From contig JAIUPJ010000001.1 of assembly GCA_020160975.1 (NCBI GenBank), positions 420,001 to 452,000 on the forward strand: a DNA stretch of 32,000 nt. The letters run 5' to 3'. This stretch comes from Candidatus Saccharimonadota bacterium. Its GTDB lineage: Bacteria > Patescibacteriota > Saccharimonadia > Saccharimonadales > Saccharimonadaceae. Under the pieces are notes generated by a model, which searched no databases, was not told where the DNA came from, and saw only the letters and a program-made list of their open reading frames with translations. Positions 1 to 14,498 of this stretch are shown here, piece by piece. Each line of letters begins with the position of its first letter. The stretch's first letter is position 1. The translations under genes were made by a program, and so were the position numbers.

Positions 1-652
1 GAGCAGCTGCATCAGCTGCACCGATTTTGACGACAGCATTTGTCGTATCCACAGTAAATAGCGATGAACTATTGCCGACCGTGAAAGCAGCCGTGCTGTT
101 GGTCGTGACACCAAGCGTGCCAGTAAACACCGAGTTCGATCCGAGCTGTGCAAACGCCCCACTATCAAGTCCATCCAACGTATCAGAGTTAAATGCATAG
201 GACGAGCTGCCAAGCTTGTTGCGGGGAGACATGGGGCCTTCAGAGTAGGCTTCGCAGGCGGCAGTTGTACAGGTGGCAGTCGCGGGGGTTGGGAGTTCTA
301 TCTCAAAGTAGAGAGCATTGGCATTGTTGAAGAGAGTTGGCGAAAGACTAGAGACATCACCCAGCTGGACACTAAAGAGCCCGCCCGTGGTAACGGTCAC
401 GCCAGTAGTTGCAGAGTTTGCTCGTTGCTCGCTCCAGAGGAGTGTGCCAGCGCTCGCAGCATCGTAGAGACGGAACTTCATATTGTAGGTGCCAGGAGCC
501 ATTGGGTTGCCTGAGACATCGTTAATACGACCTTGAAAGTTAAGTTTGTAGGGAATGGATTGGAGGGCAGAGGAGGGAGTGCCATGCACAAACAACACTA
601 AGCCAGCACACAAGGCTGGTAGCGCAAAAAACATCAGTCGTCGATTTCGCAC
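1..652 (-). CDS. Secreted tail-fibre-like / adhesin-like surface protein, N-terminal ~217 codons only (gene runs off the left window edge)
   Basis: Absent from the ORF track because it is open to the window edge. Minus-strand reading from GTG 652 (alt ATG 634) gives MRNRRLMFFALPALCAGLVLFVHG (signal-peptide-like). It continues IPYKLNFQGRINDVSGNPMAPGTYNMKFRLYDAASAGTLLWSEQ ... SSYAFNSDTLDGLDSGAFAQ with no stop down to base 1. These motifs are typical of N-termini of very long tail-fibre/collagen-like surface proteins (recognised from memory, not searched). Possible -35 TTGACG (706-701), -10 TATATC (682-677) and a GGAAAGGGG SD lie upstream. Confidence 0.6.
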   Translation of the reverse strand, partial: MRNRRLMFFALPALCAGLVLFVHGTPSSALQSIPYKLNFQGRINDVSGNPMAPGTYNMKFRLYDAASAGTLLWSEQRANSATTGVTVTTGGLFSVQLGDVSSLSPTLFNNANALYFEIELPTPATATCTTAACEAYSEGPMSPRNKLGSSSYAFNSDTLDGLDSGAFAQLGSNSVFTGTLGVTTNSTAAFTVGNSSSLFTVDTTNAVVKIGAADAAA

Positions 653-753
653 GCCGTTGGTCACTTGCCCCTTTCCGATATACTACTCACTCCACACCAT
701 CGTCAATGTATAGTGTGGCTCAATTGTAACTATACCGCTTATGTCATCACTTT

Positions 754-1611
754 TCAACGGGCAGTGGCGCGCTGACGGCGCAATCTACGCACGAGCACTC
801 CGCCCGCACCAACGGCAACTGTTGCAGTAATCGGTAACAACCAGCGCCAATAGCCTGTGATGGCAAAAAAATATGTCGACTTCTCCCCTGTTTCGGCGTG
901 GGCAGTTAATTTAATTACCCCTAGGTAATCTCCCTGTTGACGATAGTCAACACTTCGCGCTCGGCCTGCAAACACCAAAGGACCTTCGATTGTCTTTGTC
1001 GTATACGGCCAAACATTAACAACAATCTGCGGGTAATACCCCGTTGACTGCCTTGGATCGGCCATATTTTTGACCACAAACGAAGCAGTGAGTGCGTCAC
1101 CAATCTGAAATGGCGATGCGGCCAGCGAAGCAATGGTAGCTTTGCGGTCTGTTGAGGCGCCATTTACTATCGATAGAAGCGTCCCAACCCTTACTGATGA
1201 CTGCGCGCCCTCAACCTGCTGGGGCTGAGTAGAAGCAAAAATTGCCGCAAATACCTCACCTGACGGCAACTTACTGCTATCAATCGAAAAGGCGAGATGC
1301 AGGGTTTCGCGTGGACCTAATTCCGCTTCAGTATAATCAAGCATCACACCTTTACTGACTTGTTCATCATCAAAAAATTCGAGATTCCCTTCGTCGTCTA
1401 TTTGTCGAAACGCCTGCACCGTAAGCTTCAGCTTAACCGCGCTACCGCTAGGATTTGCAATATCAACAAAGCCTTTTTTACTCTCACGTTTTACTAACGT
1501 TGCATTGTAGTGAAGTGGTGTGATACGCAAAGAATCAGCAAAGGCACTGTGTCCCGGCAAAAGACCGCCAGCAATCATCCCAAGCACCGCCATCAGCCAC
1601 CACACTCTCAC
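754..1611 (-). CDS. Secreted two-domain beta-rich protein with C-terminal membrane anchor (DUF916/DUF3324-like, CscA-type architecture; inference)
   Basis: 285-aa ORF. The GTG start overlaps the stop of the upstream gene (GTGA at 1608-1611); alt ATG at 1593. It has a signal peptide (LLPGHSAFA/DS), two beta-rich segments, and a C-terminal hydrophobic helix plus RRLRRQR tail. Same architecture as ORF 3806-4732. Confidence 0.6.
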   Translation of the reverse strand: MRVWWLMAVLGMIAGGLLPGHSAFADSLRITPLHYNATLVKRESKKGFVDIANPSGSAVKLKLTVQAFRQIDDEGNLEFFDDEQVSKGVMLDYTEAELGPRETLHLAFSIDSSKLPSGEVFAAIFASTQPQQVEGAQSSVRVGTLLSIVNGASTDRKATIASLAASPFQIGDALTASFVVKNMADPRQSTGYYPQIVVNVWPYTTKTIEGPLVFAGRARSVDYRQQGDYLGVIKLTAHAETGEKSTYFFAITGYWRWLLPITATVAVGAGGVLVRRLRRQRATAR

Positions 1612-2996
1612 GGCAGCATCGTCCCTGTCACGGTCACAATATTGGTATATATACCCGCTGCTTGCGTACTGGTCACATCAAGCTTGAGCTTTAGCCCAAG
1701 CACATCCTTCACGCCAACCCCAGTTCGCGAGTACACCGTTGTTGCCGTACCTGGCAAGGCAGCGTAGGCGTTTCCCGCACTCCATTTTCCGTCGATCGCC
1801 GTTGCGTTCGTGCTAGCCAGACTGAACCCAAGACCTTTTGTAGTGCCTTCGCTCCATGTCGTAGGGCTTGCAACGGTTGAAGAAATTGCAGGGATTGTGT
1901 TTGGGCCACTGGTAAGATTTTGATTTTGCTGGATTGCCACGCTGTAGTTCGAAGCATCTGTACGAACAATGGCATCAAACGAAACCGCCTGTGACGAACC
2001 TGCGAGTATATCTGTCGCAAATGCAACTCCCGACGCAAGGCCTGCGCTGCCTGCAGCATACTCCGCGCCTACTTCATTGATGCTTAAAACTCGGTTATAT
2101 ATTTTGACCTCATCGATCGACCCACCAAAGGGTCGAGAAAGTCCATAAAAGTCACCAAGACAAAGGAATGCATTCGCATTTTGTAGTGTCGCCGGCACCG
2201 ACCCTGTCATCGTAAGTGCCTGCGATACTCCATCGATATACACTTTCACTCGGTTAGCTGCTGCACCTTGCGTGCCATCAAATGTGACCGTCACCTGATG
2301 CCATCCGCTCGTCCATGAGCCAGCGGGAGTTTCGACATAATTTACTCCACTATCGGTTAAACTTGACGCCACGATAAATCTCAGCCTCGTTCCGTCACTA
2401 CTCGATGTTTGCAAGGCCCATGCACCAGAGGTAGGAGTGCCACCGCTATAATCCCACTGTGATGCAAGCGTGGCATTGATCGTCTGTGGCCCAGAGGCCC
2501 AGAGCGACACGGTCATCGATTGGCCAGTAGGCAAACTCGCATTGTCTGGTACCCGAAAGTTACCTGTTGTTGCCGTTGCGTTATACCCTCCTCCGACTTT
2601 ACCGGCGACCCAACCAGAGGCTGACGATGCGGCAACACCTGCGCTATTTGCCTGCGCACTCGTGTCATACGCGGCATTTCCTGCTCCTTCATCAAGCGAC
2701 CAATATCCCACCAGTCCGTCGGGCTGCACGGTGAGCTGCAAGCTCTTTGGCAGCTGTGCCACATAACCCATACCGATTTTGTAGCTACCACCTGCGCCAT
2801 TTCCCACAATTGTTTCACCACCACTCCCCACGAGTGAGTAGCTTGATGAACCGCTTTGTCCACCAAAGTTATTTCCTACGCTTGCATCGATCACATAGCT
2901 AGATGAAGAAAAACGATATGCAGATACACCATTCGCAAAAAGCACTGCGATAGCCAGTACTGTCAGCGCGAGTAGTCCCCCTCTCTCTCGTGTCAT
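1608..2996 (-). CDS. Secreted LamG (concanavalin-A-like lectin/glucanase fold) domain surface protein with WxL-like C-terminal domain
   Basis: 462-aa ORF with signal peptide LALTVLAIAVLFANGVSA and SSSY/GSSSYSL glycine-serine repeats. A classic Laminin_G_3 pattern follows: LVGYWSLDEGAGNAAYDTS ... SLWA ... GWHQVTVTFDG ... VKVYIDGV ... GSIDEVKIYNRVLSINEV. The C-terminal ~140 aa are paralogous to ORF 4747-5364 (NTIxA...TW...GF.L...KWSA...AGIYTNIVTVTGTMLP). Confidence 0.8.
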   Translation of the reverse strand: MTRERGGLLALTVLAIAVLFANGVSAYRFSSSSYVIDASVGNNFGGQSGSSSYSLVGSGGETIVGNGAGGSYKIGMGYVAQLPKSLQLTVQPDGLVGYWSLDEGAGNAAYDTSAQANSAGVAASSASGWVAGKVGGGYNATATTGNFRVPDNASLPTGQSMTVSLWASGPQTINATLASQWDYSGGTPTSGAWALQTSSSDGTRLRFIVASSLTDSGVNYVETPAGSWTSGWHQVTVTFDGTQGAAANRVKVYIDGVSQALTMTGSVPATLQNANAFLCLGDFYGLSRPFGGSIDEVKIYNRVLSINEVGAEYAAGSAGLASGVAFATDILAGSSQAVSFDAIVRTDASNYSVAIQQNQNLTSGPNTIPAISSTVASPTTWSEGTTKGLGFSLASTNATAIDGKWSAGNAYAALPGTATTVYSRTGVGVKDVLGLKLKLDVTSTQAAGIYTNIVTVTGTMLP

Positions 2997-3003
2997 TATA
3001 TAC

Positions 3004-3012
3004 AGTATACCA
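3004..3012 (-). promoter_or_regulatory. Extended -10 promoter element TGGTATACT, 7 nt upstream of the ATG at 2996 (leaderless-type arrangement)
   Basis: Minus strand reads TGGTATACT-gtatata-ATG within the 22-nt gap between ORFs 3019-3840 and 1608-2996. The identical 9-mer occurs upstream of dnaG and pyrG. Confidence 0.45.
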
Positions 3013-3018
3013 GTCTGG

Positions 3019-3840
3019 TTATGGGAAAAACATCACAGCAAGTAGTATCAGCGCAGCACCCGTTATTCTTACTGGGGTACATATCTTGGTCGTTCGCTCA
3101 GTTCGTACAGGAATCAAAGGAAGTGTTGCAAGGGCACGATAACTCCACCATGGAGCAAGCAACAGCACCAGTCCGACCGCCACACCTAAAAAGCGCAATG
3201 CCATTATTCCAGGCTGCGACTCATAACCAGGCACCACTATATCGGCTGCAACCATAAAACCAAACACGCCATCAAGAATAAATTTAACGATCCCTTCTTG
3301 CGAGACCGCCCCTGCACTTTCAGATATTTTTTGGCCAGAAGCGACCACGCCATCATGCGTCAAAGGATTTGGCTGAGTCGCCGACGCAGACGATGAATCT
3401 GATGTGGTCGTAGGATCCTGCGCCGGAAGTGTTGGGTCATAGGCCACATCGATCGTCTCTTCAACCTGTGATGAAGTGATCGGGTCGATGCCCACCAGCC
3501 TCACCACATGGAATCCAGGGCTATACACCAAACTAAAACTATATGTAGCTGCCCCAAAATCAAGGGGTATCGTAGTACTATATACCCCATCAACATACAC
3601 CATAATTTGACTAACATTGTGCACTGTCCCAGTGATGGTGATGGCTGAATTACCCGATGAACTTGCCGGTGTAGGGCTCGTGATTTTCAAATCAGCAGGT
3701 TGATCATCGCGGACCTTTGCATTGACATTTGTTTGCGCCAAGGTAGTAGACGAAGGCAGCGCCAGGTTATACACTGCAGTGCATAATATAACTGTAGCTA
3801 CGAGCCTAGCGACGTGGCCGAAATGCTGTGGTCGACCCAT
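3019..3840 (-). CDS. Membrane protein with extracellular Ig-like/beta-sandwich domain and C-terminal transmembrane helices
   Basis: 273-aa ORF with an N-terminal signal/anchor (LVATVILCTAVYNLALP). A beta-rich segment (KITSPTPASSSGNSAITITGTVHNVSQIMVYVDGVYSTTIPL...) is followed by a Ser/Thr/Pro linker and 2-3 hydrophobic helices at the C-terminus. The start at 3840 overlaps the upstream gene by 35 nt; AAGGCGG lies ~10 nt upstream. Confidence 0.55.
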   Translation of the reverse strand: MGRPQHFGHVARLVATVILCTAVYNLALPSSTTLAQTNVNAKVRDDQPADLKITSPTPASSSGNSAITITGTVHNVSQIMVYVDGVYSTTIPLDFGAATYSFSLVYSPGFHVVRLVGIDPITSSQVEETIDVAYDPTLPAQDPTTTSDSSSASATQPNPLTHDGVVASGQKISESAGAVSQEGIVKFILDGVFGFMVAADIVVPGYESQPGIMALRFLGVAVGLVLLLAPWWSYRALATLPLIPVRTERTTKICTPVRITGAALILLAVMFFP

Positions 3841-4732
3841 TATTACGCCGCCTTACGATTTGGATTGCACCAAGAAGAACTAGTAAAGCTAAGATAAATA
3901 ACAGCCACTTAGGGGCCACAACCACGTATTGATCGGATTGAGTGTGCTTGCCAAGAACCGTTGCTTCACTATGCACTTTGTATACGCCGATCCACGCCGT
4001 TTTATCCCAGCTAATATCGACCGCACGAGTCGTATTTGGCAGTACATAGGCCTCTTGCTCATTTTGATACTTGACGTTACCAAACAAATCCATGACTGCG
4101 AATCGAGTTTTTGCTGCAAAATCTGTTTTTCCGGTATTTTCGATTCGAATTGTTGAGGTGAGTGGCGGTACAGACGTGAACCATGGCGTATCAATTGAAG
4201 CGACTTTTCCACTGGTTTCGGTTGGCCCATTGACAGTCGAGTAAAGCAGTAGTGCCAGTCGCTTTTTTCGGGAAATTCCCGTACTTTCAGCAGTTTTTGG
4301 CTGTGTCTCCACAAAAATCACTCCATAATGTCCGCCCGCTGTCGCCCCTTTGCTGACATTCATTGTAAAGGGAATGTGAATCGTTTGCTTCGGTTCAGCA
4401 TGCCAGGTTGCTTTTTCAAAGCTTATCCAGCGATATGCATCGGCGTTTGCCGGCTGACTAGTGAAGTCTGGCGTGTATGCCTCGTCTTTTACTGAGTAGG
4501 GGCCAGTATACACTTGGAAATCATACGCGGTATCACCATAATTGATGATCGTAAATTCATCGCGCACTACCGCTCCTGCGTCTACTGTCAAATGTTTAGT
4601 GGGCGGCGACAGCGTGATACTTTCTTGCACCTCTTCGGCTTGTACAGAAGCGCTGCCGACAGTACCAATAAGCAACAGGGCTACACTGAGCCCTGTGACA
4701 AATTTGAACCCATAACCCCTATGCTTTTTCAC
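3806..4732 (-). CDS. Secreted two-domain beta-rich protein with C-terminal membrane anchor (DUF916/DUF3324-like, CscA-type architecture; inference)
   Basis: 308-aa ORF with a GTG start at 4732 and signal peptide (LLLIGTVGSASVQA/EE). Contains the motif GGHYGVIFVETQP, a second beta domain, and a C-terminal helix WLLFILALLVLLGAIQIV plus RRRNN tail. Paralogous in layout to ORF 754-1611. Confidence 0.6.
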   Translation of the reverse strand: MKKHRGYGFKFVTGLSVALLLIGTVGSASVQAEEVQESITLSPPTKHLTVDAGAVVRDEFTIINYGDTAYDFQVYTGPYSVKDEAYTPDFTSQPANADAYRWISFEKATWHAEPKQTIHIPFTMNVSKGATAGGHYGVIFVETQPKTAESTGISRKKRLALLLYSTVNGPTETSGKVASIDTPWFTSVPPLTSTIRIENTGKTDFAAKTRFAVMDLFGNVKYQNEQEAYVLPNTTRAVDISWDKTAWIGVYKVHSEATVLGKHTQSDQYVVVAPKWLLFILALLVLLGAIQIVRRRNNGSTTAFRPRR

Positions 4733-4746
4733 TGTACCCTATGGTA

Positions 4747-5364
4747 CTATTTTGCAGTCGCCGTGTAAACAACTTGGTCGGTGTAAGTTCCAGTCGGCTT
4801 TGTGTTGTCGACTTTTGCGGCGTACCACACCACCGTCTGGTCGTTTGAGGCAGTGGTAGACGTGCTCTTGAGAGTGTAAGGAGTACCCTGTGCCGGGATT
4901 GCCGACCATTTTGAAGTGCTAGTTGTGCTGTTTGTTTCGACAGAATAGGTTGCATCAAACCCGGTACCGCCAGGCAGCGCAAATCCCCAAGTGTTGGTGG
5001 CAAGTGCGGCGCCACTTCCAATTGCATTTGCCGATGCAGCAATGGTGTTGCCACCGCTCGTGAGAGTGTAGGTGGTATCGGCATCGGCCAGTGTCAAAAG
5101 ATATCCTAATGTGTCGTTTGTGTTCACCGTCAATGTATCGCTTGCGCTCGACAGCACTGCGCTCGCACCAGGTGTCAAGTTGATATCGACGTTATTGCTC
5201 GTGCCCTGAGAAGTCGTAGTGAGAGTAATCGTTGCCGCAACAATTGCACGAACTGTTGGGCTTACCGTCACTGCATCTGCCTGGAACGACGGCACAGTAA
5301 CCAGTCCCAGCGCAAGTGTCGCACCCGCTGTTGCCAACAAAGATGATTTGAAGATTTTTTTCAT
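4747..5364 (-). CDS. Small secreted beta-rich surface protein, WxL-like domain (inference)
   Basis: 205-aa ORF with signal peptide MKKIFKSSLLATAGATLALGLVTVPSFQA/DA and Thr/Ser/Ala-rich beta-strand composition. It has an internal TWGF motif and the C-terminus GTYTDQVVYTATAK. Homologous to the C-terminal domain of ORF 1608-2996. AAGGAAA SD-like element upstream; first gene of the cluster. Confidence 0.6.
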   Translation of the reverse strand: MKKIFKSSLLATAGATLALGLVTVPSFQADAVTVSPTVRAIVAATITLTTTSQGTSNNVDINLTPGASAVLSSASDTLTVNTNDTLGYLLTLADADTTYTLTSGGNTIAASANAIGSGAALATNTWGFALPGGTGFDATYSVETNSTTSTSKWSAIPAQGTPYTLKSTSTTASNDQTVVWYAAKVDNTKPTGTYTDQVVYTATAK

Positions 5365-5432
5365 TGTTTATTATTATTTCCTTTATAGTGTTACTGCCGA
5401 GATTGTCTCATATCGATTATGCTCTTGTCAAT

Positions 5433-6002
5433 CTAGCTAAGTAGTAATTTATACATCAATTCTTTTGTTCGCTCGTTGCTCGTGTGCTGAATACTCTGCA
5501 TGCCTGCAACCTCCGCCCCCTCGCAGTTGTCAGCAAGATCATCAATCATGACACACTCCTCGGGTCGTAGGCCAATTCTTTCAGCCATCAGTGTAAATAT
5601 GACGGGGTTTGGCTTTGCCAGCCCTTCTTGATACGACAGTACTACTGTATCGAACAGCTCATGTAGCTCCTCGCCAAAAAGCTCTTGCATCGTCCGCTCA
5701 CCGATATTACTGAGCATGCCTAGTTTGTACTCACCCTTTGCTCTCAGCTCTTTGATATACGCCACCAGCTCTTTATTTCGCACGTGCTTTTCGCGCAACA
5801 TTTTTTCAATATCACTAGGTTGCAGTCCGAGGACCTCGGCCGTCTTGGCCAAATATTCATCATATGAGATATACCCATAATCCTTCTGCAGATTGATGTC
5901 ATAGATCTCCTGACGCCGATCGTCTGGGGCCATCAACGAAATCAAGGTCAGGCTCCCACTATAGAGCACCCCAAAACAGTCAAAAATAATCCCGCGTATC
6001 AT
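5433..6002 (-). CDS. HAD-superfamily hydrolase/phosphatase
   Basis: Motif I is right at the N-terminus if translation starts at ATG 6002 (MIRGIIFDCFGVLY; DxF/DxG type). A later LSN and a C-terminal IDD acidic motif are present. The longer track ORF (to 6071) would overlap the upstream gene; TATACT-N6-ATG sits at 6014-6002. Confidence 0.8.
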   Translation of the reverse strand: MIRGIIFDCFGVLYSGSLTLISLMAPDDRRQEIYDINLQKDYGYISYDEYLAKTAEVLGLQPSDIEKMLREKHVRNKELVAYIKELRAKGEYKLGMLSNIGERTMQELFGEELHELFDTVVLSYQEGLAKPNPVIFTLMAERIGLRPEECVMIDDLADNCEGAEVAGMQSIQHTSNERTKELMYKLLLS

Positions 6003-6021
6003 ATCACTAGTATACCGATGA

Positions 6022-6618
6022 CTAGTAAATTTCGTCGAATATTGGAGAGAAATCAGGAATCTGATTGACAAACAGTGCCTGCACTTGCGCTGGCTTGGCA
6101 GTCATTGTGCCTTTAGAACCCGCACAGGTAGTCGTCCACTCTGATTGATCAGCCGTACCGTCTTTTGCCGTCTCAAATACAAACGCTAGGCCCTGCGTAG
6201 CGCACGCCCCACGTATGTCATTGTCGGCAGCATTGCGTGTATTTGTTACATCTGCTTTTGCAAGCGCGTACACAAATTGCTCATATGCTTGCCGATTATT
6301 TTCATACCTGTGTGTCAAGACTACTTGATCAAGATAACCTGTATACACCGTGTATGATCGAGAAGTAGGCGACACAGTAATTTGGTACGACTGGAACTTC
6401 TCATTTGCCACAATTGGCCCGCGCACTGCCCAGCGTACCGAGCGACCTTCATCAGTATCAACGAGGCTTGATGATATGCTGTCAGTTGCCTTGTCTTGGC
6501 TCGATGAGTTGCTAAAGAAAATCATACGACCAACCGAAAAAACCGCTGCAGTCACGAGTGCAATCACGAGCACCACAATAATGATCGGAAAAATGCGGGG
6601 ATTTGAGCCTCTATACAT
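6022..6618 (-). CDS. Hypothetical N-terminally membrane-anchored protein
   Basis: 198-aa ORF with one N-terminal TM helix (IFPIIIVVLVIALVTAAVFSV) and then a soluble domain containing two Cys. No motif recognised. Confidence 0.5.
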   Translation of the reverse strand: MYRGSNPRIFPIIIVVLVIALVTAAVFSVGRMIFFSNSSSQDKATDSISSSLVDTDEGRSVRWAVRGPIVANEKFQSYQITVSPTSRSYTVYTGYLDQVVLTHRYENNRQAYEQFVYALAKADVTNTRNAADNDIRGACATQGLAFVFETAKDGTADQSEWTTTCAGSKGTMTAKPAQVQALFVNQIPDFSPIFDEIY

Positions 6619-6664
6619 GCAATTATCATGTCACTAGAGGTAAAAAAAGTAAAGCATGTACAGT

Positions 6665-7306
6665 TTAACTATCTGCCGTGACAGCGCCATGCACTGTGCC
6701 AAGATGTCCTAGCGCAAATCGTACCGCTTCTCTCTCACGAAATACTCGCTCTTCCTCAGCCTGTGCAGAACGAACCGCATCGACAAGTCGTATCATTGAT
6801 TCAAGTGCCTCATAGTCTTCAAACATCGCTTCGCGGGTTCTCCCTCGCCACAGCTCGGCATGGTGTAAGCGCTGATCATCATCGAGTATACCGGTCAGAT
6901 AGTCGTGGCGATACGCATCGCGCTCTCGAGGCATCAATTGCATCCATAGTCGATGATTCACCGTTTCTACTGCGAGGATTGTGCGGTCACGCTCTTCACC
7001 AAAAATATCTCTTTCTGCAACTAGCCAAGCATGGGGGTCGCGCAGATCTCGCCCAGTTTGCGTACCAACGTAAAGCAGCTGCTCGATTTCGGCGGATACA
7101 CCGGCAAATGTCGCACCATCATACACATGCAACTCTCCATTGATATAACGCATCGGCAAAGGGTGATTGTCATTACTCCTCTCCATCCACACACACTTCG
7201 AATAGTCATATCTTGCAAATCCATCTGGTGTGGTATGCATTTTTTCGGCCAATTCATACAATGCTGGCCGACGAGTTTCTGTACGCGAAGCAACCATGCT
7301 GTCCAT
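6665..7306 (-). CDS. Hypothetical cytoplasmic protein (Arg/Glu/Asp-rich), unknown function
   Basis: 213-aa ORF with no TM segment and no recognisable motif. The start is probably the second ATG at 7297, which has GAAAGGAA 8 nt upstream. Confidence 0.5.
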   Translation of the reverse strand: MDSMVASRTETRRPALYELAEKMHTTPDGFARYDYSKCVWMERSNDNHPLPMRYINGELHVYDGATFAGVSAEIEQLLYVGTQTGRDLRDPHAWLVAERDIFGEERDRTILAVETVNHRLWMQLMPRERDAYRHDYLTGILDDDQRLHHAELWRGRTREAMFEDYEALESMIRLVDAVRSAQAEEERVFREREAVRFALGHLGTVHGAVTADS

Positions 7307-7418
7307 TCCTTTCGACGTTCATTGTTTGTGTGTATGAGTGTCTCTCACTGTAATACACCTCCCCACGAAAAAGCGCAAGTAATTTTAGTTGCGACCTTCT
7401 GGTGCCGCAGCAAGCTAT

Positions 7419-8393
7419 CTAGATATAGTGGCCAAACTTATGATTAGAAAGTCCGTGTTCGCGTATCAATTGGTTTAGCTTGTCGCGCATGGGTGCATGA
7501 TTCACAAATCGCCAGTCAGCCAGATCACCAAACAAATCCGGCAAAATGCATAGCACCACTACAGGCACGCGCTGAGCGCCATGACCGTTGTATTCAATGA
7601 TATAGCTCTGTTTGTCGCCTTCCATCAGTTCACGCTCCGTCAACCGGCCTTCGTGCACCAGCTGTTCCATGCGTCGTCGAAACGAGCTCGGCGTTTTGAC
7701 ATCGATGTTGATATAGCGCCGATCCTCGGGGTCTTGTACCTGAAGGTCAATGCCTAGCGCGTCCTGGGCACGATCGGTCATAAACGCATGAAATCCGCTA
7801 TCCTTTGCGGCCAAATACACCGCAACTTCTCGGGTAAGACCGCGGATAATCGATGTCCACTGCTCTTCACTAAAGCACGGCGCGCCAACCCGTTTGCAGA
7901 TCCGATCAGCCGCTTGTTTGACTCGATCAGCAAACTGTCGCCGATGCTCGTCGTCGAGGTTCAAAATTGTCGCCACCAGCGTATCGTTAAAATCAATGAG
8001 TTCAAATAATCGCTCTTGCTTGTTGCGATACCCATGAGGAAACTGGTCCATCTGCTGTTGCGCCAGCACAGCACGCGGCGCTTGCGCTAGGAGCGCCACC
8101 AAGCCATCGCTCGGGTCATTGGTCTGCTGGAACTGCTTTTGCAGCTTGTCGATGTAGCGGTCGAGGGCATGCACCTCGGGTCGGCGCTGCAGTCGTGCCA
8201 CTACCTGCTCTTCGGCGCAGTCAAAAAAATCCGTACTACGACAAATATACTGCACTGGTTCAGGCGCAAGCAGATGCTGCTGATCCTGTCGTGTGTCGCG
8301 AAAACGTATTTGCCGCTGGCGGTAGCCACGAAGTCCATGTCGGCGGCGCAACGGCCGAAAGTGTTGCCAGTGGTGTCGAAAACGATGATGCAT
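7419..8393 (-). CDS. Hypothetical protein with possible PD-(D/E)xK nuclease-like core (low-confidence inference)
   Basis: 324-aa ORF. The segment LTREVAVYLAAK ... ALGIDLQVQD ... RYINIDVKT fits the E ... hhhDhhh ... hhh(D/E)xK pattern of restriction-endonuclease-fold proteins. The first ~40 residues are extremely R/H-rich and no SD precedes ATG 8393, so the true start is uncertain. Confidence 0.45.
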   Translation of the reverse strand: MHHRFRHHWQHFRPLRRRHGLRGYRQRQIRFRDTRQDQQHLLAPEPVQYICRSTDFFDCAEEQVVARLQRRPEVHALDRYIDKLQKQFQQTNDPSDGLVALLAQAPRAVLAQQQMDQFPHGYRNKQERLFELIDFNDTLVATILNLDDEHRRQFADRVKQAADRICKRVGAPCFSEEQWTSIIRGLTREVAVYLAAKDSGFHAFMTDRAQDALGIDLQVQDPEDRRYINIDVKTPSSFRRRMEQLVHEGRLTERELMEGDKQSYIIEYNGHGAQRVPVVVLCILPDLFGDLADWRFVNHAPMRDKLNQLIREHGLSNHKFGHYI

Positions 8394-8478
8394 GAAAAGT
8401 TTTTTGTTTTTAGTGAATTATTCTACCTATAAAAATAGCATAAACAGTTTGAAAAGTCAATGCTGTCCTTTCTTGCGT

Positions 8479-8859
8479 CTACAGCAAGGTCACTTCGCGC
8501 TTGACGAACGTCTTGTCGTTAAGCCAGGCGCGTTCGGCGGTGAAACGATAATGACCGAGTTCGCTGCCGCGGTCTTCGACGAGCACGCCGTGTCCACTCA
8601 TGTACACACCGGCTTGTTGTTCGGTATTAAAGATCACGACCGACATTGCCGGGCGATCGGTGAGCGCCTGCGAGTGGAGGGTATCGAGTTTTGAATCCCA
8701 CTCAAATTCATTTCCCTGCCATCGTGCGATGCGTACCGGCACCGCCCAAGGCCTGCCGTCGTCCAGTGTGACTGCCAGCACCATAAAGTGCTGTTCGGCC
8801 AGAAATTCTTGTACAAATTTTTTATCCTGATTACTGCTTTCCAGTGCTTCCATATCCAC
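8479..8859 (-). CDS. Pyridoxamine 5'-phosphate oxidase-like (FMN-binding split-barrel) family protein
   Basis: 126-aa [27 protein letters not shown] ... MSVVIFN ... [13 protein letters not shown] matches the general PNPOx-like/general-stress-protein-26 pattern. It overlaps the dut 3' end by ~25 nt. Confidence 0.55.
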
Positions 8860-9269
8860 CTACTCCCCTTTCGGTAATATCTAGTTCACCAACCTCATCC
8901 CACTCAACCGTTTCGTACTGCTGCACGATCATCTGCGCGATACGCATACCCGGCTCGACAGTAAATGGCTCGTTGCTAGTGTTTAGCAATATCACGCCCA
9001 CTTCACCACGATAATCTGCATCGATCGTTCCCACGCCATTGGCCAGCATAATGCCGTGTTTTGCCGCCAATCCGCTGCGTGCCCGTATCTGCGCTTCGTA
9101 CCCAGTCGGCAACGCCATGGCAAACTCCTGTCGGAATAATAATCCGCTCATGTGGCGCAATTATCACTGGCTCATCGATGCACGCTGCCACATCCATCGC
9201 CGCCGCTTGCGCTGTTTGGTACTGTGGAACTACGGTATTTACATTGAGTTTTTTGAATTTAATTTTCAT
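8831..9269 (-). pseudogene. dut: dUTP diphosphatase (dUTPase) interrupted by a 1-nt frameshift
   Basis: Track ORFs 9003-9272 and 8831-9160 are the N- and C-terminal parts of one trimeric dUTPase in frames offset by 1. The N-terminal part reads MKIKFKKLNVNTVVPQYQTAQAAAMDVAA...ERIIIPTGV. The C-terminal part reads [24 protein letters not shown]...[17 protein letters not shown]...RIAQM...[10 protein letters not shown]. Removing one T from the GTTT run (forward AAA 9122-9124) gives a continuous 145-aa Dut; the span is 439 nt = 146 codons + 1. Confidence 0.85.
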
Positions 9270-9657
9270 CAATCAACTTCTCTATCCGTTTCTTTATTTC
9301 ATCGCGTACTGCGCGGTCTATTTCGATAGTGCGATTTTCTTCGTAGTGGGGATCGGCGACATCCCACAACTCTGCCTTGTAACTCTTGGTCACATAGCTC
9401 GGCATATAGGGTGTCGGAAACCAAACTACTTTGTCTGCTGCATCGACTATCTCTTGCGTTAGCTGATCGCTCTTCTGACCCGCCATAGTCAAGCCAATCT
9501 CTTTCATCCCCGTTTCGCCGCGTTCAGAAGCATGATTTTTCAGCGTTGCGATCGCACCTGCGCTGGTTGCATCGTGCGACTTTGTGAATGTATTATAAAT
9601 TGTCTCTGCCATTTGACTGCGAATCATATTACCTTCGCAAACGAAAAGAATCTTCAT
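9259..9657 (-). CDS. Low-molecular-weight protein-tyrosine phosphatase family protein
   Basis: MKILFVCEGNMIRSQMAE carries the C-x5-R-S P-loop. VADPHY supplies the DP general acid. There are no extra Cys pair residues expected for ArsC. The start ATG 9657 overlaps the upstream stop (TAATG). Confidence 0.8.
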   Translation of the reverse strand: MKILFVCEGNMIRSQMAETIYNTFTKSHDATSAGAIATLKNHASERGETGMKEIGLTMAGQKSDQLTQEIVDAADKVVWFPTPYMPSYVTKSYKAELWDVADPHYEENRTIEIDRAVRDEIKKRIEKLIDEN

Positions 9658-10274
9658 TACTTTTCCTTTTTCTCTGCCATCACATATAGCCAATTCTTGT
9701 CTTTATATATTGTTTCACGTATATCTGTAACCAAAAAATTTGCCCTTTCAAGCTTTGCTCGTAGCTCATCTGCCTGGAAATAGCGAAAATATCGCGGAAG
9801 CCCCAACTGCTGATCTTCAGTGAGCTCTCCATCCCTCTCAATTACCGAAAAAGCGAGTTTACCGTCCTTTACTAGCGCAGCATGGATGTTTTGTAGTGCA
9901 GATGAAAAATCTTCATCAGTAAAATGCAGAAACACTGCGCTCGCATACACAACATCCCACTTGCCTTCAGGAGCTTCAGCAATAATGTCTAAGCGTAATG
10001 GCGAATGGCCATGCTGCCGCAAATAGTCCAAGAAGCCACCCGACGCATCCGTTACCTGCACCTTGTAGCCCTTGCTGGCGAGATATCTCGCGTCTCTCCC
10101 GTGCGCGCTGCCAATTTCCAAAATACGTGCGTTTTGTGGCACATCACGAAAAACATCGCCGAGCCAATCGTTATAAAACCCCTCGCGTGAACGCGTCATA
10201 TCTCGATTCACATATGGCTCAATGCTTTTGTTATAGGTATGGATGGTTTGGCTATTTTGCTGCGACATGTCCAT
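9657..10274 (-). CDS. Class I SAM-dependent methyltransferase
   Basis: Motif I ARILEIGSAHGRDARYLASKGYKVQVTDAS, then post-I/II elements (WDVVYASAVFLHF, LVKDGKLAF). Paralogous to ORF 10818-11465. Confidence 0.8.
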   Translation of the reverse strand: MDMSQQNSQTIHTYNKSIEPYVNRDMTRSREGFYNDWLGDVFRDVPQNARILEIGSAHGRDARYLASKGYKVQVTDASGGFLDYLRQHGHSPLRLDIIAEAPEGKWDVVYASAVFLHFTDEDFSSALQNIHAALVKDGKLAFSVIERDGELTEDQQLGLPRYFRYFQADELRAKLERANFLVTDIRETIYKDKNWLYVMAEKKEK

Positions 10275-10821
10275 TGCCCTCCAGCCACTGCAAGAGTATC
10301 AAGGCAACACGCCCTTCTTTCATGTCGCCCACTAGTATCATTCGTCTTGCCTCCTCAAAACCTACCCACACATCCGCCTCAATCATCTCACCAATCTCTA
10401 ACTCTTGTCCGGCCGAGCTCAAGCTCCATTTGTGAGCTACAAATACGTACAAATCCCACTCGACAGTCGCACCAAGTGTAGACTTCTCGACGAACTCAAT
10501 TTCTTCCACCTCAATGCCCGCTTCTTCGCGTGCCTCAGCAACTGCTTTAGCTTTTGCAGCAAGTAAAATATCTTCGTCACGCATACGAAATGCTGCAAAC
10601 TCATCAAGCGTGTCAAATACCTTCCTTCCCGGCAGCCGGTAGTCCCACTCTTCCAGTTCATGACGAAACTCTTTAGTGAGCAAAATCTTTTTTGCTGCAT
10701 CATCGACGATGATGACACGAACACCTGGTGCTCTGCGTGCAACTTCAAATATACGACCATCGTCTTGCTTTATCTGCACGAGTTCAAATATCTTTCCCTT
10801 TGCAACTATCTCTTCGCTCAT
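10252..10821 (-). CDS. Nudix hydrolase (ADP-ribose pyrophosphatase-like)
   Basis: 189-aa ORF. The Nudix-box core AVAEAREEAGIEV (RExxEExGU) is preceded by LPGRKV, with an apparent insertion in the box. Overlaps both neighbours. Confidence 0.7.
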   Translation of the reverse strand: MSEEIVAKGKIFELVQIKQDDGRIFEVARRAPGVRVIIVDDAAKKILLTKEFRHELEEWDYRLPGRKVFDTLDEFAAFRMRDEDILLAAKAKAVAEAREEAGIEVEEIEFVEKSTLGATVEWDLYVFVAHKWSLSSAGQELEIGEMIEADVWVGFEEARRMILVGDMKEGRVALILLQWLEGNGHVAAK

Positions 10822-11465
10822 GCAGGCTTCTTTCCGACAAAACGCACAAGGTGATGTACTCCCTTGTCAATATCTTTATATGTCTCGCCTTTTTCATCAC
10901 AGATAATGACATCAAATTTCTCGGCAAATTTCTTTACTGACTCCGCACTAAAATATCGTTTTTTTGTACCCTCGGTCTCGAAATAATCACCTTCTAGCTT
11001 CGTGCCGCTATTGTATTCAGGGTCATTTACTGAGTTCACTAGAAATGCCACAATACCGCCCGGCTTTAGCACTCGATATATCTCATTGAAGACCTGTTTG
11101 GTAGTTTCTGTATCGAAATAGTGCAACGCGAGATGCGAATAAACGACATCGAACTTCTCGTCATCGTAGACGAATAACTCATCCAAATTGAGCGACTCAA
11201 ATAAAATATTTTGAACATCTTGTTCGAGTTTTCGTTGCCTTGAAATATATAGTGCTGATTCTTCAAAATCAGTCGCGATAACATGAAAGCCTCTCGCCCC
11301 AGCTAGCCAAAGTCCATCTTGTCCTTGACCACAACCAAGTTCAAGGATGCGCGACCCAGCCGGAAAATATTCGACAATTTCTTCGACAAAAATTGATGGC
11401 TTTTTAGACCAATCGCGTGCAGCATAGTCATCATGTTTTTCTTGCCAAAATTGACTGTCAGCCAC
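10818..11465 (-). CDS. Class I SAM-dependent methyltransferase
   Basis: Motif I SRILELGCGQGQDGLWLAGARGFHVIATDFE; later FDVVYSHLALHYF and LKPGGIVAF. The track ORF extends to 11759 but that part lies inside polA. The first usable start after the polA stop is GTG 11465 (no ATG exists in the domain), with AAGG 4-8 nt upstream. Confidence 0.75.
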   Translation of the reverse strand: MADSQFWQEKHDDYAARDWSKKPSIFVEEIVEYFPAGSRILELGCGQGQDGLWLAGARGFHVIATDFEESALYISRQRKLEQDVQNILFESLNLDELFVYDDEKFDVVYSHLALHYFDTETTKQVFNEIYRVLKPGGIVAFLVNSVNDPEYNSGTKLEGDYFETEGTKKRYFSAESVKKFAEKFDVIICDEKGETYKDIDKGVHHLVRFVGKKPA

Positions 11466-11469
11466 TACC

Positions 11470-14103
11470 TTACACTTCCCCCCAATTATTTCCCGTGTGC
11501 ACATCCACTTGCAGTCGCACGCCGAGTTTTGGATAAATGTTTTCCATGGTTTCGACGAGCATAGTGCTGACTTTTTCGGCCATGTCTTTCGGACATTCGA
11601 TGAGGATAGAGTCGTGAATCTGCAAGAGTTGCTGGGGACGAGATGTCGCTTCGGTACTTTGGGAGACTCTGCTTTCCGCAGGAAGCGAGCTGTTCTTTTC
11701 AGCTTGCTGTGCTCCCAAATGTGCCGAAGCGACAGCGAGTTGTGTAAGGTTTTCCTCAACTCTAATCATCGCCATCTTCATAAGGTCCGCCTCGGTCCCC
11801 TGTATCGGCATGTTCGCTGCCGCACGCTCAGCGGCCTGGCGAACAACAAAGTTGCTCGACTTTACATCTGGTGTCCAGCGCCGGCGACCAAACAGTGTCT
11901 CGACAAAGCCATCATCGTGCGCCTTTTTCACCGTGTCGTCGATATACTTACGAATGTTTGGCCGCACCCGGAAGTACTCATCGATGAAATGCTGGGCCTC
12001 CTGATAATTCATATTTGCGGCGGCGGCTAGCCCGTGCTGGCTCATACCGTAGAGCACACCAAAGTTGACCACTTTGGCTTTGCGTCGCTGCTCTTTCGTG
12101 ACGGCATCGAGCGGTACTTTGTATACCTCAGCCGCGGTCTTGGCGTGAATGTCGGTACCGGCATTGAAATCATTGATCATTTTTTCGTCACCCGCCAGCA
12201 CCGCCGCAAGGCGTAGTTCAAACTGCGAATAATCGGCACTGACAAATACATTGCTCGGGTCTGGCACGAATGCATCGCGAATTTGCCGCCCCAGCTCGGT
12301 GCGAATCGGGATGTTCTGAAGATTAGGGTCGGTACTACTGAGCCTTCCTGTCGCTGCCACGTCTTGACGAAAGACAGTGTGGATGCGCCCCGCATCATCT
12401 GCCTGCTCAGGCAATGTCTTCACGTAGGTGTTGAGTAGCTTGGTCAGCTCACGGAATTGTTCGATACTCTCAATGATAGGGTGCTGGCCGCGTAGTTTGT
12501 CGAGCTCTTTTTGGCCCGTCGAAAAACCTGTCTTGCCTTTTTTTACTCCCACCGTCGAGAGGCCGAGCTCTGTATACAAAATTTCTGCAAGCTGCGCAGG
12601 GCTGGCGATATTGAATTCGTGGCCTACCATGGCGAACATTGTTTTTTGAATCTCAGCGATGTCCTTCGTAAGTTTTACCTCCATCTCGGACAGCTTGCTA
12701 CTATCAAGACGTATGCCGCGAAACTCCATGCGCGCCAACACCGGAATTAAAGGGAAGTCCATCGTGTGCGCCACATGTGCGACGTCAGGCAAGGCATCGA
12801 GTGCTTGGCTCTGCTCGTCATAGAGCGCCCAAATCGCACTGATAGCGAGCTTTGGATCGTCAATCGCTTCCATCCCCACCAGGTCAGCTAGTTCGCGCGA
12901 TTTACGCAGGGGGTTTAGCAAGAATGAGCCTTGCTCGGTATCATGATGAACTTCAGGCAATTCCGTCTCCCCATTTGCCAGCAAGTCTTTCAAAAATGCC
13001 TTGGTGTTGTGACCAACGATAGGCACTTTCGCAACAACATCTGCAGCCACTTTTCGTGACAATTTGGCGGCCTTGCTGCGCTCGTGGCTCAACCAGACGC
13101 CGTCGCCATCTGGCCAAACGATCAGTTCTTTGGCCATCAGCAGCACGGCGCGCGAGTGGCTGGCCGGCATCTCTTCGGCTGACTCGACCACCGCTAGATC
13201 TGGTGTGCCGCTAGAACTAGTGTCAGTATCACGCATGTGTTCAGGCAGATTGCGTAGTAGACTGCGAAACTCAAGTTTCGTGAGCAATTCTTTTAATTTG
13301 TGCGTGTCGAGATCACTCACATCCATAGCCTTGAGATCGAGTGGCACCGGCGCATCAAACCACAGCTCGGCAACTTTTTTGCTCAGCTCAGCCGATGCTT
13401 TGCCTGCCTCAAGCTTGCGGCGCGTTGCATCTTTGATTTGCCATAGATTCTCGTAAATTCCGTCGAGCGTTTCGTATTGTTGGAGCAGCTGCACAGCTGT
13501 CTTTTCCCCAATGCCCGGCACACCGGGAATGTTGTCACTTGAGTCGCCTTTCAGCGCCTTGAGGTCAAGAAATTGGTCGACACGAATACCGTATTTTTCG
13601 GTAAAACTTTCGGGCTTGAACAGGTCGATATTTGTCAGACCTTTTTTCAACGCATAGACATGCACCAACGGGTTGACAGCCTGTAGTGCGTCGAGGTCGC
13701 TAGTAATCAAACAAACTTCAATCCCCTGCTCGCTGGCCTTCCGAGCAAGTGTCGCCAATATATCATCGGCCTCATAGTCATCCAGCTCATATAGCGGCCA
13801 GCCAAACGCCGCCAATAACTCGTGGAGGATTGGAATCTGTGCATAGAAATCCGCCGGCGCAGGCTTGCGACCAGCTTTGTAGTCTGGGTAGATCTCGAGT
13901 CGCTTGCGAATATTCGTCTTGGGCTTGTCCCACGCCACACAGGCGTAGTCGGGCTTGAGTTTCTTGAATAACTCGAGCGAAAGAGCCGCAAACCCATACA
14001 CCCCGCCGGTCGGTGTGCCATCGGCGGTCGAAAGATTTGGCATGGCATAGTAACCGCGATAGAACACAGACTTGCCATCAATAATCACTAAACGTTTCGC
14101 CAT
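11470..14103 (-). CDS. polA: DNA polymerase I
   Basis: 877 aa. The 5'-nuclease domain reads LVIIDGKSVFYRGYYA...YEADDILATLA...GDSSDNIPGVPGIGEKTA. Family-A polymerase motifs are DYSQFELRLAA, KVVNFGVLYGMS and QIHDSILIE. The Exo I DxE motif of the 3'-5' exonuclease domain is not visible, so it is probably proofreading-inactive. TATAAT (14115-14110) lies 6 nt upstream of the ATG. Confidence 0.97.
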   Translation of the reverse strand: MAKRLVIIDGKSVFYRGYYAMPNLSTADGTPTGGVYGFAALSLELFKKLKPDYACVAWDKPKTNIRKRLEIYPDYKAGRKPAPADFYAQIPILHELLAAFGWPLYELDDYEADDILATLARKASEQGIEVCLITSDLDALQAVNPLVHVYALKKGLTNIDLFKPESFTEKYGIRVDQFLDLKALKGDSSDNIPGVPGIGEKTAVQLLQQYETLDGIYENLWQIKDATRRKLEAGKASAELSKKVAELWFDAPVPLDLKAMDVSDLDTHKLKELLTKLEFRSLLRNLPEHMRDTDTSSSGTPDLAVVESAEEMPASHSRAVLLMAKELIVWPDGDGVWLSHERSKAAKLSRKVAADVVAKVPIVGHNTKAFLKDLLANGETELPEVHHDTEQGSFLLNPLRKSRELADLVGMEAIDDPKLAISAIWALYDEQSQALDALPDVAHVAHTMDFPLIPVLARMEFRGIRLDSSKLSEMEVKLTKDIAEIQKTMFAMVGHEFNIASPAQLAEILYTELGLSTVGVKKGKTGFSTGQKELDKLRGQHPIIESIEQFRELTKLLNTYVKTLPEQADDAGRIHTVFRQDVAATGRLSSTDPNLQNIPIRTELGRQIRDAFVPDPSNVFVSADYSQFELRLAAVLAGDEKMINDFNAGTDIHAKTAAEVYKVPLDAVTKEQRRKAKVVNFGVLYGMSQHGLAAAANMNYQEAQHFIDEYFRVRPNIRKYIDDTVKKAHDDGFVETLFGRRRWTPDVKSSNFVVRQAAERAAANMPIQGTEADLMKMAMIRVEENLTQLAVASAHLGAQQAEKNSSLPAESRVSQSTEATSRPQQLLQIHDSILIECPKDMAEKVSTMLVETMENIYPKLGVRLQVDVHTGNNWGEV

Positions 14104-14117
14104 ACTTCTATTATACG

Positions 14118-14432
14118 CTAGATACCTCTGTCAAAGTCGAAAGTGTATTGTGGAGAAATGCCATGCGGAAGGTAAAGTGCTTTGAGTTGCTGTGCAACGG
14201 TGCCGTCAAGCTTTTTGCGCACGGCGGACTCCCATAGTGTCTTGGCGTCGGTATTATCAGTAGGCGTACGATCTGCAAGTGCCGCGGCACGTGCAACCAA
14301 TACAACGTCGACCACCTTGAGTCCAAGCTCGAAACGATTGTCTCTGTCCTCAACATGAGTATTGACGCCCTTCAAAAATCCCACGCTACGCATGACTCGT
14401 AGATGCTGCTTGTGCGCTCTCTCTTCATTCAT
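14118..14432 (-). CDS. Hypothetical small protein
   Basis: 104-aa ORF filling the gap upstream of polA and divergent from the kinase gene. No motif recognised. Confidence 0.4.
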   Translation of the reverse strand: MNEERAHKQHLRVMRSVGFLKGVNTHVEDRDNRFELGLKVVDVVLVARAAALADRTPTDNTDAKTLWESAVRKKLDGTVAQQLKALYLPHGISPQYTFDFDRGI

Positions 14433-14498
14433 ACGAAATCACTATGTCGTACGGTGGTGAGAAGTGCAAGCTCTCGCTCGCCATGGTACACTGCTTAT

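Follow-up and report, generated by a model that had tools for sequence, protein, structure and literature searches.

A cluster of six genes (g1 to g6) at positions 1-5364 of a 32,000-nucleotide (nt) stretch of the Candidatus Saccharimonadota bacterium contig JAIUPJ010000001.1 (assembly GCA_020160975.1; the whole stretch is called the window here) was identified as a locus of the Pam pilus family of candidate phyla radiation (CPR) bacteria. We use "type 1" for the kind of locus seen in the window and "type 2" for the canonical pam operons. It is fairly probable that the cluster encodes a distinct type-1 variant of the family: a thin, adhesive pilus that is Sec-dependent and usher-less and is assembled by chaperone-assisted donor-strand exchange. 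Its identity as a Pam/DUF916-family locus is much more secure than this full mechanism. A preliminary description of the window, made from its letters without database searches, had placed the cluster in a reduced-genome organism, which proved to be a Saccharibacterium, a member of the ultrasmall CPR bacteria. The same description had regarded the system as not yet described, a view that no longer holds, since the Pam pilus family was published in 2026 and the NCBIfam Pam models match these gene families.

Pam pili of CPR bacteria were first described by Troman et al. (bioRxiv 10.64898/2026.03.03.709456), who combined cryo-electron microscopy (cryo-EM) with operon analysis. In the Ca. Mycosynbacter amalyticus filaments seen by cryo-EM, the two-domain pilins PamA and PamB polymerise via donor-strand exchange. 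The pam operon further encodes the PapD-like chaperones PamC and PamD, each with a C-terminal transmembrane (TM) helix, the tip-like PamT and the RbmA-like anchor PamR, while a tail-fibre-like gene and ATP synthase genes are its conserved neighbours. Besides PamA and PamB, the Pam pilins include PamE and PamT. The same preprint stresses that Pam homologues are under-detected by sequence search. The corresponding NCBIfam models, dated June 2026, are NF058578 (PamR), NF058579 (PamT) and NF058581 (Pam_pilin_C).

Scans of the single window proteins against Pfam and NCBIfam returned almost nothing beyond LamG, and family-wide scans were therefore needed. A pattern scan of GTDB species representatives found 168 relatives of g2; the best 80 of them were examined, and all came from Saccharibacteria/Saccharimonadia metagenome-assembled genomes. 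The families scanned comprised 53 (g1), 41 (g2), 30 (g3), 27 (g4) and 31 (g5) proteins. The NCBIfam Pam models were the sole recurring matches across the g1, g3 and g4 families, and profile comparison tied each type-1 component from g1 to g5 to a type-2 counterpart or to an NCBIfam Pam model.

The proteins g2 and g5 share one topology: behind a signal peptide come two beta-sandwich domains and a C-terminal helix, and in the tail six of the last 15 residues are lysine or arginine. Together they constitute a PapD/FimC-like chaperone pair with a C-terminal TM helix, the feature that characterises PamC/PamD. The hydrophobic segments of g5 fall below the hydropathy threshold, and g5 aligns with g2 through the C-terminal helix region. 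In the AlphaFold2 (AF2) model of g2, with a predicted local distance difference test (pLDDT) value of 90.7, a signal helix is followed by two immunoglobulin (Ig)-like beta-sandwich domains; residues 275-298 form the TM helix, behind which the tail is basic. In Foldseek searches its top PDB matches were the E. faecium WxLIP (9i1y) and the WxLIP-long WxL complex (9i25), at E about 6e-13; RbmA came next, and then the chaperones CfaA, CsuC, FimC, Caf1M and CupB2, the first four of these at 1e-9 to 1e-7. By hhalign, the g2 family aligned with the chaperones of the canonical pam loci at E 6.5e-63 and 7e-43, and the g5 family at E 1.9e-36. The two window proteins also resemble each other (BLASTP E 6e-8), and comparison of their families (hhalign probability 99.8%, E 2.7e-29) extends over 259 columns including the TM region; they are paralogues.

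The most conserved element of g2 is a hairpin in which G133, G134, H135, Y136, G137, V138, F140, E142, K157 and R158 are invariant or nearly so. The AF2 model folds it into strands 133-144 and 158-167, with a loop of lower confidence between them. Residues 133-167 may be the strand-donating F-G hairpin of the chaperone. Their counterpart is the hairpin of WxLIP that AF2 predicts to complete the WxL sandwich.

For g1, both hydropathy and the AF2 model (pLDDT 87.2) place an N-terminal signal peptide as the sole hydrophobic anchor-type segment; the model continues with an N-terminal extension that includes a confident strand, followed by a beta-sandwich. The topologies predicted in the preliminary description were thus upheld by hydropathy and, for g1 and g2, by the AF2 models, and all six products are secreted or membrane-anchored, as it had proposed. 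Against the NCBIfam model CPR_Pam_pilin_C (NF058581; cut-off 55 bits) g1 scored 22.1 bits (E 1.3e-4), and the model matched 42 of its 53 relatives at E<=0.01 (best 3.4e-8). Profile comparison aligned the g1 family with the C-terminal domain of PamA/B-like pilins (hhalign probability 98%, E 6e-13) and with the small pilin of the canonical pam loci (E 2.8e-26). Judged by these alignments, g1 appears homologous to the Pam pilin C-terminal domain, yet lies outside the boundary of the curated family. Its top PDB folds are almost exclusively chaperone-usher pilins (CfaB, CsuA/B, FimA, FimI, Caf1), and Pfam SCPU, which covers archaic chaperone-usher pilins, is weakly matched by 11 of the 53 family members.

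Positions 38, 42, 46 and 48 of g1 are hydrophobic in 100% of the 53 homologues and alternate with polar residues; because of this pattern, we read the extension as carrying a donor-strand signature. Residues 46-50 form a confident strand in the AF2 model (pLDDT block 95). Residues 36-50 may therefore act as the donor strand, and g1, with its incomplete-Ig pilin domain, is the predicted polymerising subunit.

The g4 protein likewise has an N-terminal signal peptide as its sole hydrophobic anchor-type segment. Behind it lies an N-terminal module like that of PamT, then a lectin domain of the LamG type and, at the C-terminus, a pilin domain. The lectin fold, already proposed for this 462-aa protein, was confirmed by Pfam Laminin_G_3 (E 3.7e-18, residues 143-309). 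The NCBIfam PamT model was matched by 14 of the 27 g4 relatives through their N-terminal 90 residues, at about 28 bits against a cut-off of 240, while the window g4 itself gave no match to it at E<=0.1. The C-terminal domain of g4 aligned with g1 (BLASTP E 0.003; hhalign E 1.9e-12) and with the C-terminal domain of PamA/B-like pilins (hhalign E 4e-7); g1 and this domain belong to one domain family. With a lectin in front of a pilin domain, g4 is the predicted tip adhesin.

Two further observations concern g4. Its N-terminal module (residues 27-90), which recurs at the N-terminus of the NCBIfam PamT model, is highly conserved; it contains three S-x-S-Y-x-[LI] motifs, and Y53, G60 and Y72 are invariant. 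The LamG region (residues 92-319) matches NCBIfam TafC in 25 of 27 relatives, with a best E of 1.1e-16. TafC is a subunit of haloarchaeal Tat-fimbriae, which according to PMC12337348 are likewise assembled through strand donation; a LamG-bearing subunit would therefore recur in another donor-strand filament.

Hydropathy of g3 indicates an N-terminal hydrophobic segment, one Ig-like domain, a linker rich in S/T/P and three C-terminal hydrophobic segments. Its match to the Ig-like Pfam family Glucodextran_B (E 2.7e-5) is below threshold. The g3 family aligned with the PamR family over 103 columns (hhalign probability 94%, E 1.2e-7), and the NCBIfam PamR model was weakly matched by 7 of 30 relatives (best 5.3e-6), with the window g3 unmatched. 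We predict that g3 is the base or anchor of the pilus.

Canonical pam operons were identified at loci L053-L080. At one of them, L075, the Pam_pilin_C model gives 157-159 bits for pilins of 340 and 371 aa, and the PamR model gives 197 bits for a protein of 415 aa. In the type-2 order (L075:5510-15749, and also L053-L080), two or three tail-fibre-like genes are followed by a chaperone, a small pilin that is g1-like and convergent, either one or two two-domain pilins of 340-370 aa, a second chaperone and, last, PamR. This small pilin shares 42% identity with g1 and is perhaps unnamed in the preprint. The window locus resembles Pam pili in its Saccharimonadia lineage, in the Sec signal peptides on all parts, in the lack of an usher and in an adjacent tail-fibre-like gene, as well as in its two PapD-like chaperones with a C-terminal TM helix, its homologous pilin domain and its PamR-like and PamT-like parts. 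Unlike Pam pili, it has as its sole candidate polymerising subunit a FimA-sized single-domain pilin with an N-terminal extension, its PamT-like g4 carries a LamG lectin domain, its gene order differs, and it lacks the ATP-synthase neighbourhood. PamR has two fibronectin type III domains and one TM helix, whereas in g3 a single Ig domain is combined with three hydrophobic segments at the C-terminus.

These comparisons bear on whether the cluster is simply the described pam operon, i.e., an orthologue of the locus in Ca. Mycosynbacter amalyticus whose divergence keeps it under the NCBIfam cut-offs. Every component does have a Pam counterpart, the tail-fibre-like neighbour fits the preprint, and the under-detection by sequence that the preprint stresses also speaks for it. 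We nevertheless find this explanation improbable. The canonical loci form a separate group with g2 only 25-29% identical and with a different order; the window type encodes a PamT-like protein with LamG but no two-domain pilin, and its neighbours are Fpg/HolA instead of ATP synthase. No ATP synthase genes were found in the 32-kb window or in the 6 kb beyond it. With tblastn, the L075 pilins of 340 and 371 aa matched the window in the g1 pilin domain only, and no canonical pam operon was detected elsewhere in its 32 kb. Moreover, three loci (L012, L018 and L020) hold parts of both types side by side, which argues for paralogy rather than orthology. The type-1 locus appears to be a distinct member of the Pam family.

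In these hybrid loci (L012:164-4082, L018:7692-11645 and L020:7857-11654) a type-2 chaperone and a convergent small pilin lie directly upstream of a type-1 g1-g2-g3 block. Homologues of g4, g5 and g6 were not detected in the three loci, and a fib159-type fibre gene stands behind the block in L012 and L020. The arrangement suggests modular shuffling between the two kinds of locus.

Several results weigh against a type-1 Pam pilus. All window proteins score under the NCBIfam cut-offs, and g2, g3 and g5 of the window have no NCBIfam match. For g1 the fold similarity is weak, with a best E of 1.2e-2 and a template modelling score of about 0.5, and the similarity of g3 to PamR is confined to one Ig domain. 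No open reading frame (ORF) in 1-5364 encodes a two-domain pilin of the PamA/PamB/PamE type, in which a linker donor strand joins an N-terminal sandwich of nine strands to the C-terminal domain. All Pam structures come from the canonical operon of one organism, and a type-1 filament is a prediction from genes and models. Finally, WxLIP, the nearest solved relative of g2, is currently interpreted as the docking protein of a non-filamentous surface complex (PMC10599100).

A WxL cluster consists of a small and a large WxL protein, the latter with binding domains, and a WxLIP with the order DUF916-DUF3324-TM; the parts of WxLIP are the PGBD (PF06030/DUF916), the HBD (PF11797/DUF3324) and a TM helix, and at least two proteins with a WxL domain (PF13731) are needed for a cluster (PMC10599100). 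The preliminary description had likened the window cluster to Csc/WxL loci, with DUF916/DUF3324-like anchored partners and a small protein that would be a divergent WxL. The likeness in layout stands, as the window has a small beta-rich protein, a large protein in which a host-binding domain precedes the C-terminal domain common to both, and two-domain partners anchored at their C-terminus. Kinship of the partners with DUF916/WxLIP also stands, on the g2 folds given above and on the profile scores given below, whereas DUF3324 (PF11797) was never matched by sequence in the g2 and g5 families. The third element fell away: PF13731 matched none of the 53 g1 relatives at E<=1, it matched neither g1 nor g4 of the window at that threshold, and no WxL chain occurred among the top 50 PDB fold matches of g1.

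Sub-threshold matches to PF06030 were obtained for 10 of the 41 g2 relatives and 1 of the 31 g5 relatives. A tblastn search with g2 across 7.3 Gb of plasmids gave five weak matches, three of them annotated DUF916 proteins of Actinobacteria that pass the Pfam PF06030 threshold. The hidden Markov model of the g2 family scores 56-66 bits on these proteins, and hhalign aligned the g2 family with true DUF916 proteins at a probability of 99% (E 6e-18). Taken with the g2 model, these scores make g2 and g5 probable relatives of DUF916/WxLIP. Sequence searches of the PDB with g1, g4, profiles of the g1 and g2 families, and a pair of DUF916 proteins returned no match and reached neither the Pam structures nor WxLIP. 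The homology of Pam chaperones with WxLIP/DUF916 proteins is previously unreported: the Pam preprint mentions neither WxL nor DUF916, and the WxLIP paper mentions neither a chaperone nor a pilus. If the AF2 prediction is correct, completion of the WxL sandwich by the WxLIP hairpin is tantamount to donor-strand complementation.

The cluster might accordingly be read as a WxL/Csc-like complex that forms no filament, with g2 and g5 as permanent WxLIP-type docks for the small g1 and the large, LamG-bearing g4, joined by strand insertion without a polymer. The E. faecium WxLIP structures as best folds of g2, including the 9i25 complex, the sequence-level homology of g2 to true PF06030 proteins, the small, large and anchored partners that reproduce the WxL layout, and a pair of chaperone-like genes for a pair of subunit genes, which fits 1:1 docking, would all be accommodated. 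Yet we hold it unlikely, although it deserves more credit than orthology with the described operon. The WxL model matches no g1 relative and the top 50 folds include no WxL chain, the donor-strand-like N-terminal extension of g1 is conserved and g1 resembles the polymerising chaperone-usher pilins, the homologous C-terminal domains of Pam pilins polymerise by donor-strand exchange in cryo-EM, and the WxL cluster, by the definition in PMC10599100, includes nothing equivalent to the PamR-like g3. In common with the WxL/Csc systems of Lactobacillales and Bacillales, the locus has a small subunit, a large one whose binding domains are N-terminal, and a partner of two Ig domains that ends in a TM helix; the anchored protein of either system is also predicted to complete the beta-sandwich of the subunit with a long hairpin. 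It differs in having two anchored partners rather than one, an extra PamR-like protein and a CPR lineage; the WxL system is also described as a peptidoglycan-bound platform, unlike the filament proposed for the window locus.

Conservation of the cluster was traced by tblastn, which recovered the order g1-g2-g3-g4-g5-g6 on a single strand in about 30 of the 80 best-matching species-representative Saccharibacteria genomes. As protein identity is merely 36-50%, the arrangement is not maintained by chance. The Southlakia transposon-sequencing paper contains no relevant mention of such a cluster. It could still be argued that unrelated envelope proteins without a joint function are kept together by the high synteny of Saccharibacteria: the upstream housekeeping-type genes (a haloacid dehalogenase (HAD) hydrolase, u2 and u4) are also syntenic in these loci, and scans for promoters and terminators were not above chance. 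Such an accident is very improbable, however. The cluster includes two paralogous chaperone-like genes and two genes with a common pilin-like domain at tight spacing or with overlaps, the same five families occur together in the second, rearranged locus type, and on actinobacterial plasmids a DUF916 protein is paired with an upstream small secreted protein whose similarity to g1 is undetectable. Co-occurrence therefore survives rearrangement.

These actinobacterial pairs were found on the plasmids Clavibacter pCCh and Cellulosimicrobium pCPRO01 (L081:5218-7032 and L082:5049-10204), where a secreted hypothetical protein of about 210 aa is encoded directly upstream of a DUF916-TM protein. LamG and GH43 genes adjoin the pair, and in Cellulosimicrobium a LamG protein comes after DUF916. 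The small protein ends in G-[DS]-Y-S-S-T-[IL]-T-L-[ST]-L-F-E, and its G-x-Y-S-S-T-[IL]-T-L ending resembles the C-termini of g1 and g4; no sequence similarity to g1 was detectable. Neither a second chaperone nor a PamR-like gene was seen beside the actinobacterial pairs, and the DUF916 loci of Cohnella and Streptomyces contained no WxL genes, nor was their context informative. The hosts of Saccharibacteria are usually Actinobacteria.

For the type-1 pilus, we propose the following mechanism. Export of g1 and g4, each with an incomplete Ig-like pilin domain, would proceed through Sec, and g2 and g5 would be held on the outer face of the membrane by their C-terminal helix. Each of these chaperones would cap a subunit by inserting the strand of its F-G hairpin into the subunit groove. 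The fibre would be nucleated by g4 as the tip adhesin, whose combination of lectin and pilin domains follows the logic of FimH or PapG. Subunits of g1 would be added successively, the N-terminal amphipathic strand of each displacing the chaperone strand from the preceding subunit, and g3, with a PamR-like Ig domain on a polytopic membrane anchor, would end or tether the fibre. The neighbouring g6 would encode a separate adhesin of the trimeric-fibre type. The system probably serves to attach the epibiont to glycans of the host-cell surface.

Such a system would have much in common with the chaperone-usher pili of Gram-negative bacteria, above all the archaic (Csu) and class 5 (CFA/I) kinds: the folds of the chaperones (CfaA, CsuC, FimC, Caf1M) and pilins (CfaB, CsuA/B, FimA, Caf1), the N-terminal extension next to an incomplete Ig domain, and the lectin-plus-pilin tip of FimH/PapG. 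It differs from them in operating without an outer membrane and in having membrane-tethered rather than periplasmic chaperones. No usher-sized ORF is present in the cluster, and the window proteins gave no match to the Pfam chaperone-usher families and no significant similarity to chaperone or pilin families.

Saccharibacteria live attached to host bacteria, and to our knowledge how they recognise and hold their hosts is largely unknown. A locus conserved in dozens of species would give them a concrete second means of adhesion next to type IV pili and the canonical Pam pilus, and its g4 carries an obvious candidate for the receptor-binding module, the LamG domain. The homology of the chaperones, in turn, links a structurally solved CPR pilus with the WxL clusters of enterococci, listeriae and lactobacilli. 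These clusters have been linked to virulence and gut colonisation, and as far as we know the way they work has been vague since 2006; should the link hold, donor-strand complementation would be a mechanism that can be tested in them directly. The locus is thus of value as a conserved candidate apparatus for host attachment in epibiotic CPR bacteria, and also for the homology of Pam chaperones with WxLIP/DUF916 proteins.

More tentatively, and with somewhat less than even confidence, we hypothesize that Pam pili, the WxL/WxLIP clusters of Firmicutes and the actinobacterial pairs of a small protein with DUF916 descend from a single ancient donor-strand system that single-membrane bacteria ran without an usher, around a membrane-tethered DUF916-type chaperone. 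If this is true, the window locus would represent its minimal form, in which a pair of tethered chaperones serves a pilin of FimA size and a tip adhesin with a lectin domain. In that case WxLIP would fill the groove of WxL-domain proteins, themselves pilin-like subunits, and WxL clusters may polymerise or exchange strands too.

The coordinates of the genes and of the sites discussed are collected in Table 1.

Table 1. Genes, conserved elements and promoter-like sites of the type-1 locus (positions in the window)
Feature	Position	Strand	Description
g1	4747-5364	-	205 aa; short secreted pilin (predicted)
g2	3806-4732	-	308 aa, GTG start; membrane-tethered PapD-like / WxLIP-like chaperone (predicted)
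g3	3019-3840	-	273 aa; PamR-like membrane protein
g4	1608-2996	-	462 aa; PamT-like with LamG; predicted tip adhesin
g5	754-1611	-	285 aa (or 279 aa from ATG at 1593); predicted second membrane-tethered chaperone
g6	1-664	-	starts at 664 and runs off the window; first 221 codons of 682 aa
Candidate donor strand of g1	5215-5259	-	residues 36-50, TVRAIVAATITLT...
Most conserved hairpin of g2	4232-4336	-	residues 133-167, GGHYGVIFVETQP...RKKRLALLLY
Promoter-like site before g1	5402-5431	-	TTGACA-18-TG-GACAAT; 10/12 matches, consensus match only; in the 68-nt gap upstream of g1
Promoter-like site in the g5-g6 gap	729-757	-	TTGAAA-17-TATAGT; 10/12 matches, consensus match only

ORF calls and translations showed that all six ORFs are real and lie on the minus strand at the positions first reported. 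The preliminary description had them separated by gaps of 14-22 nt or overlapping, which is correct from g1 to g5: gaps of 14 nt (g1-g2) and 22 nt (g3-g4), an overlap of 35 nt (g2-g3) and a GTGA overlap of 4 nt (g4-g5). In the public gene call g5 starts six codons later, giving 279 aa and a g4-g5 gap of 14 nt instead of the overlap. The statement does not extend to g6, which is separated from g5 by 89 nt with a promoter-like site inside the gap, and g6 may therefore be transcribed separately from g1-g5. Overall, the number of promoter-like and terminator sites in the region was not above chance in the scan, so co-transcription of g1-g5 is supported by spacing alone. A palindrome, GTACCCTATGGTAC, at 4734-4747 covers the g1 stop codon and the 14-nt g1-g2 gap; it may be due to chance or act as a weak attenuator that tunes the pilin:chaperone ratio.

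The public contig L083 is 100% identical to window positions 1-14732 and supplies the full length of g6, 682 aa, so that the tail-fibre-like protein is large rather than "very large", as it had been called. By hydropathy g6 has a signal peptide at its N-terminus and no other hydrophobic anchor-type segment. Its N-terminal 140 residues match NCBIfam Bdello_MAT_N at E 6e-8 (32.6 bits against a cut-off of 60), Pfam gave no match along the whole 682 aa, and the C-terminus (..VNRVYVESDY) resembles those of fibre proteins adjoining canonical pam operons. Like Bdellovibrio mosaic adhesive trimer (MAT) fibre proteins and phage tail fibres, g6 is a secreted protein with a Gly/Ser/Thr/Ala-rich fibre-like sequence, and it is probably a separate adhesin with its own promoter. 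A prophage tail-fibre module was also considered and ruled out by the chromosomal housekeeping context and the Sec signal peptide on g6. Two small genes (123 and 153 aa) follow g6 at L083:16117-16965, just past window position 1; they have a hydrophobic start and no Pfam match. Genes of like size stand behind g6 in L001, L008 and L039, and these small genes possibly belong to the fibre module.

The cluster is flanked by Fpg/HolA in the type-1 setting, and the remainder of the window is ordinary chromosome, with PolA, DnaG, arginyl-tRNA synthetase, CTP synthase and Nramp. Three ORFs upstream of the cluster on the minus strand, at 6022-6618 (198 aa), 6665-7306 (213 aa) and 7419-8393 (324 aa), have no Pfam match. 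The 198-aa product carries an N-terminal TM segment; its gene and the 324-aa gene are syntenic with the cluster in most related loci, and the 213-aa gene is poorly conserved. Farther upstream, window positions 9001-11000 have a strongly negative GC skew (-0.17 to -0.28) and a GC content of 0.46-0.47, below that of the surroundings. The counterpart of this region in L083 contains methyltransferase genes, a gene with low-molecular-weight (LMW) phosphatase matches and a gene with dUTPase/DCD matches.

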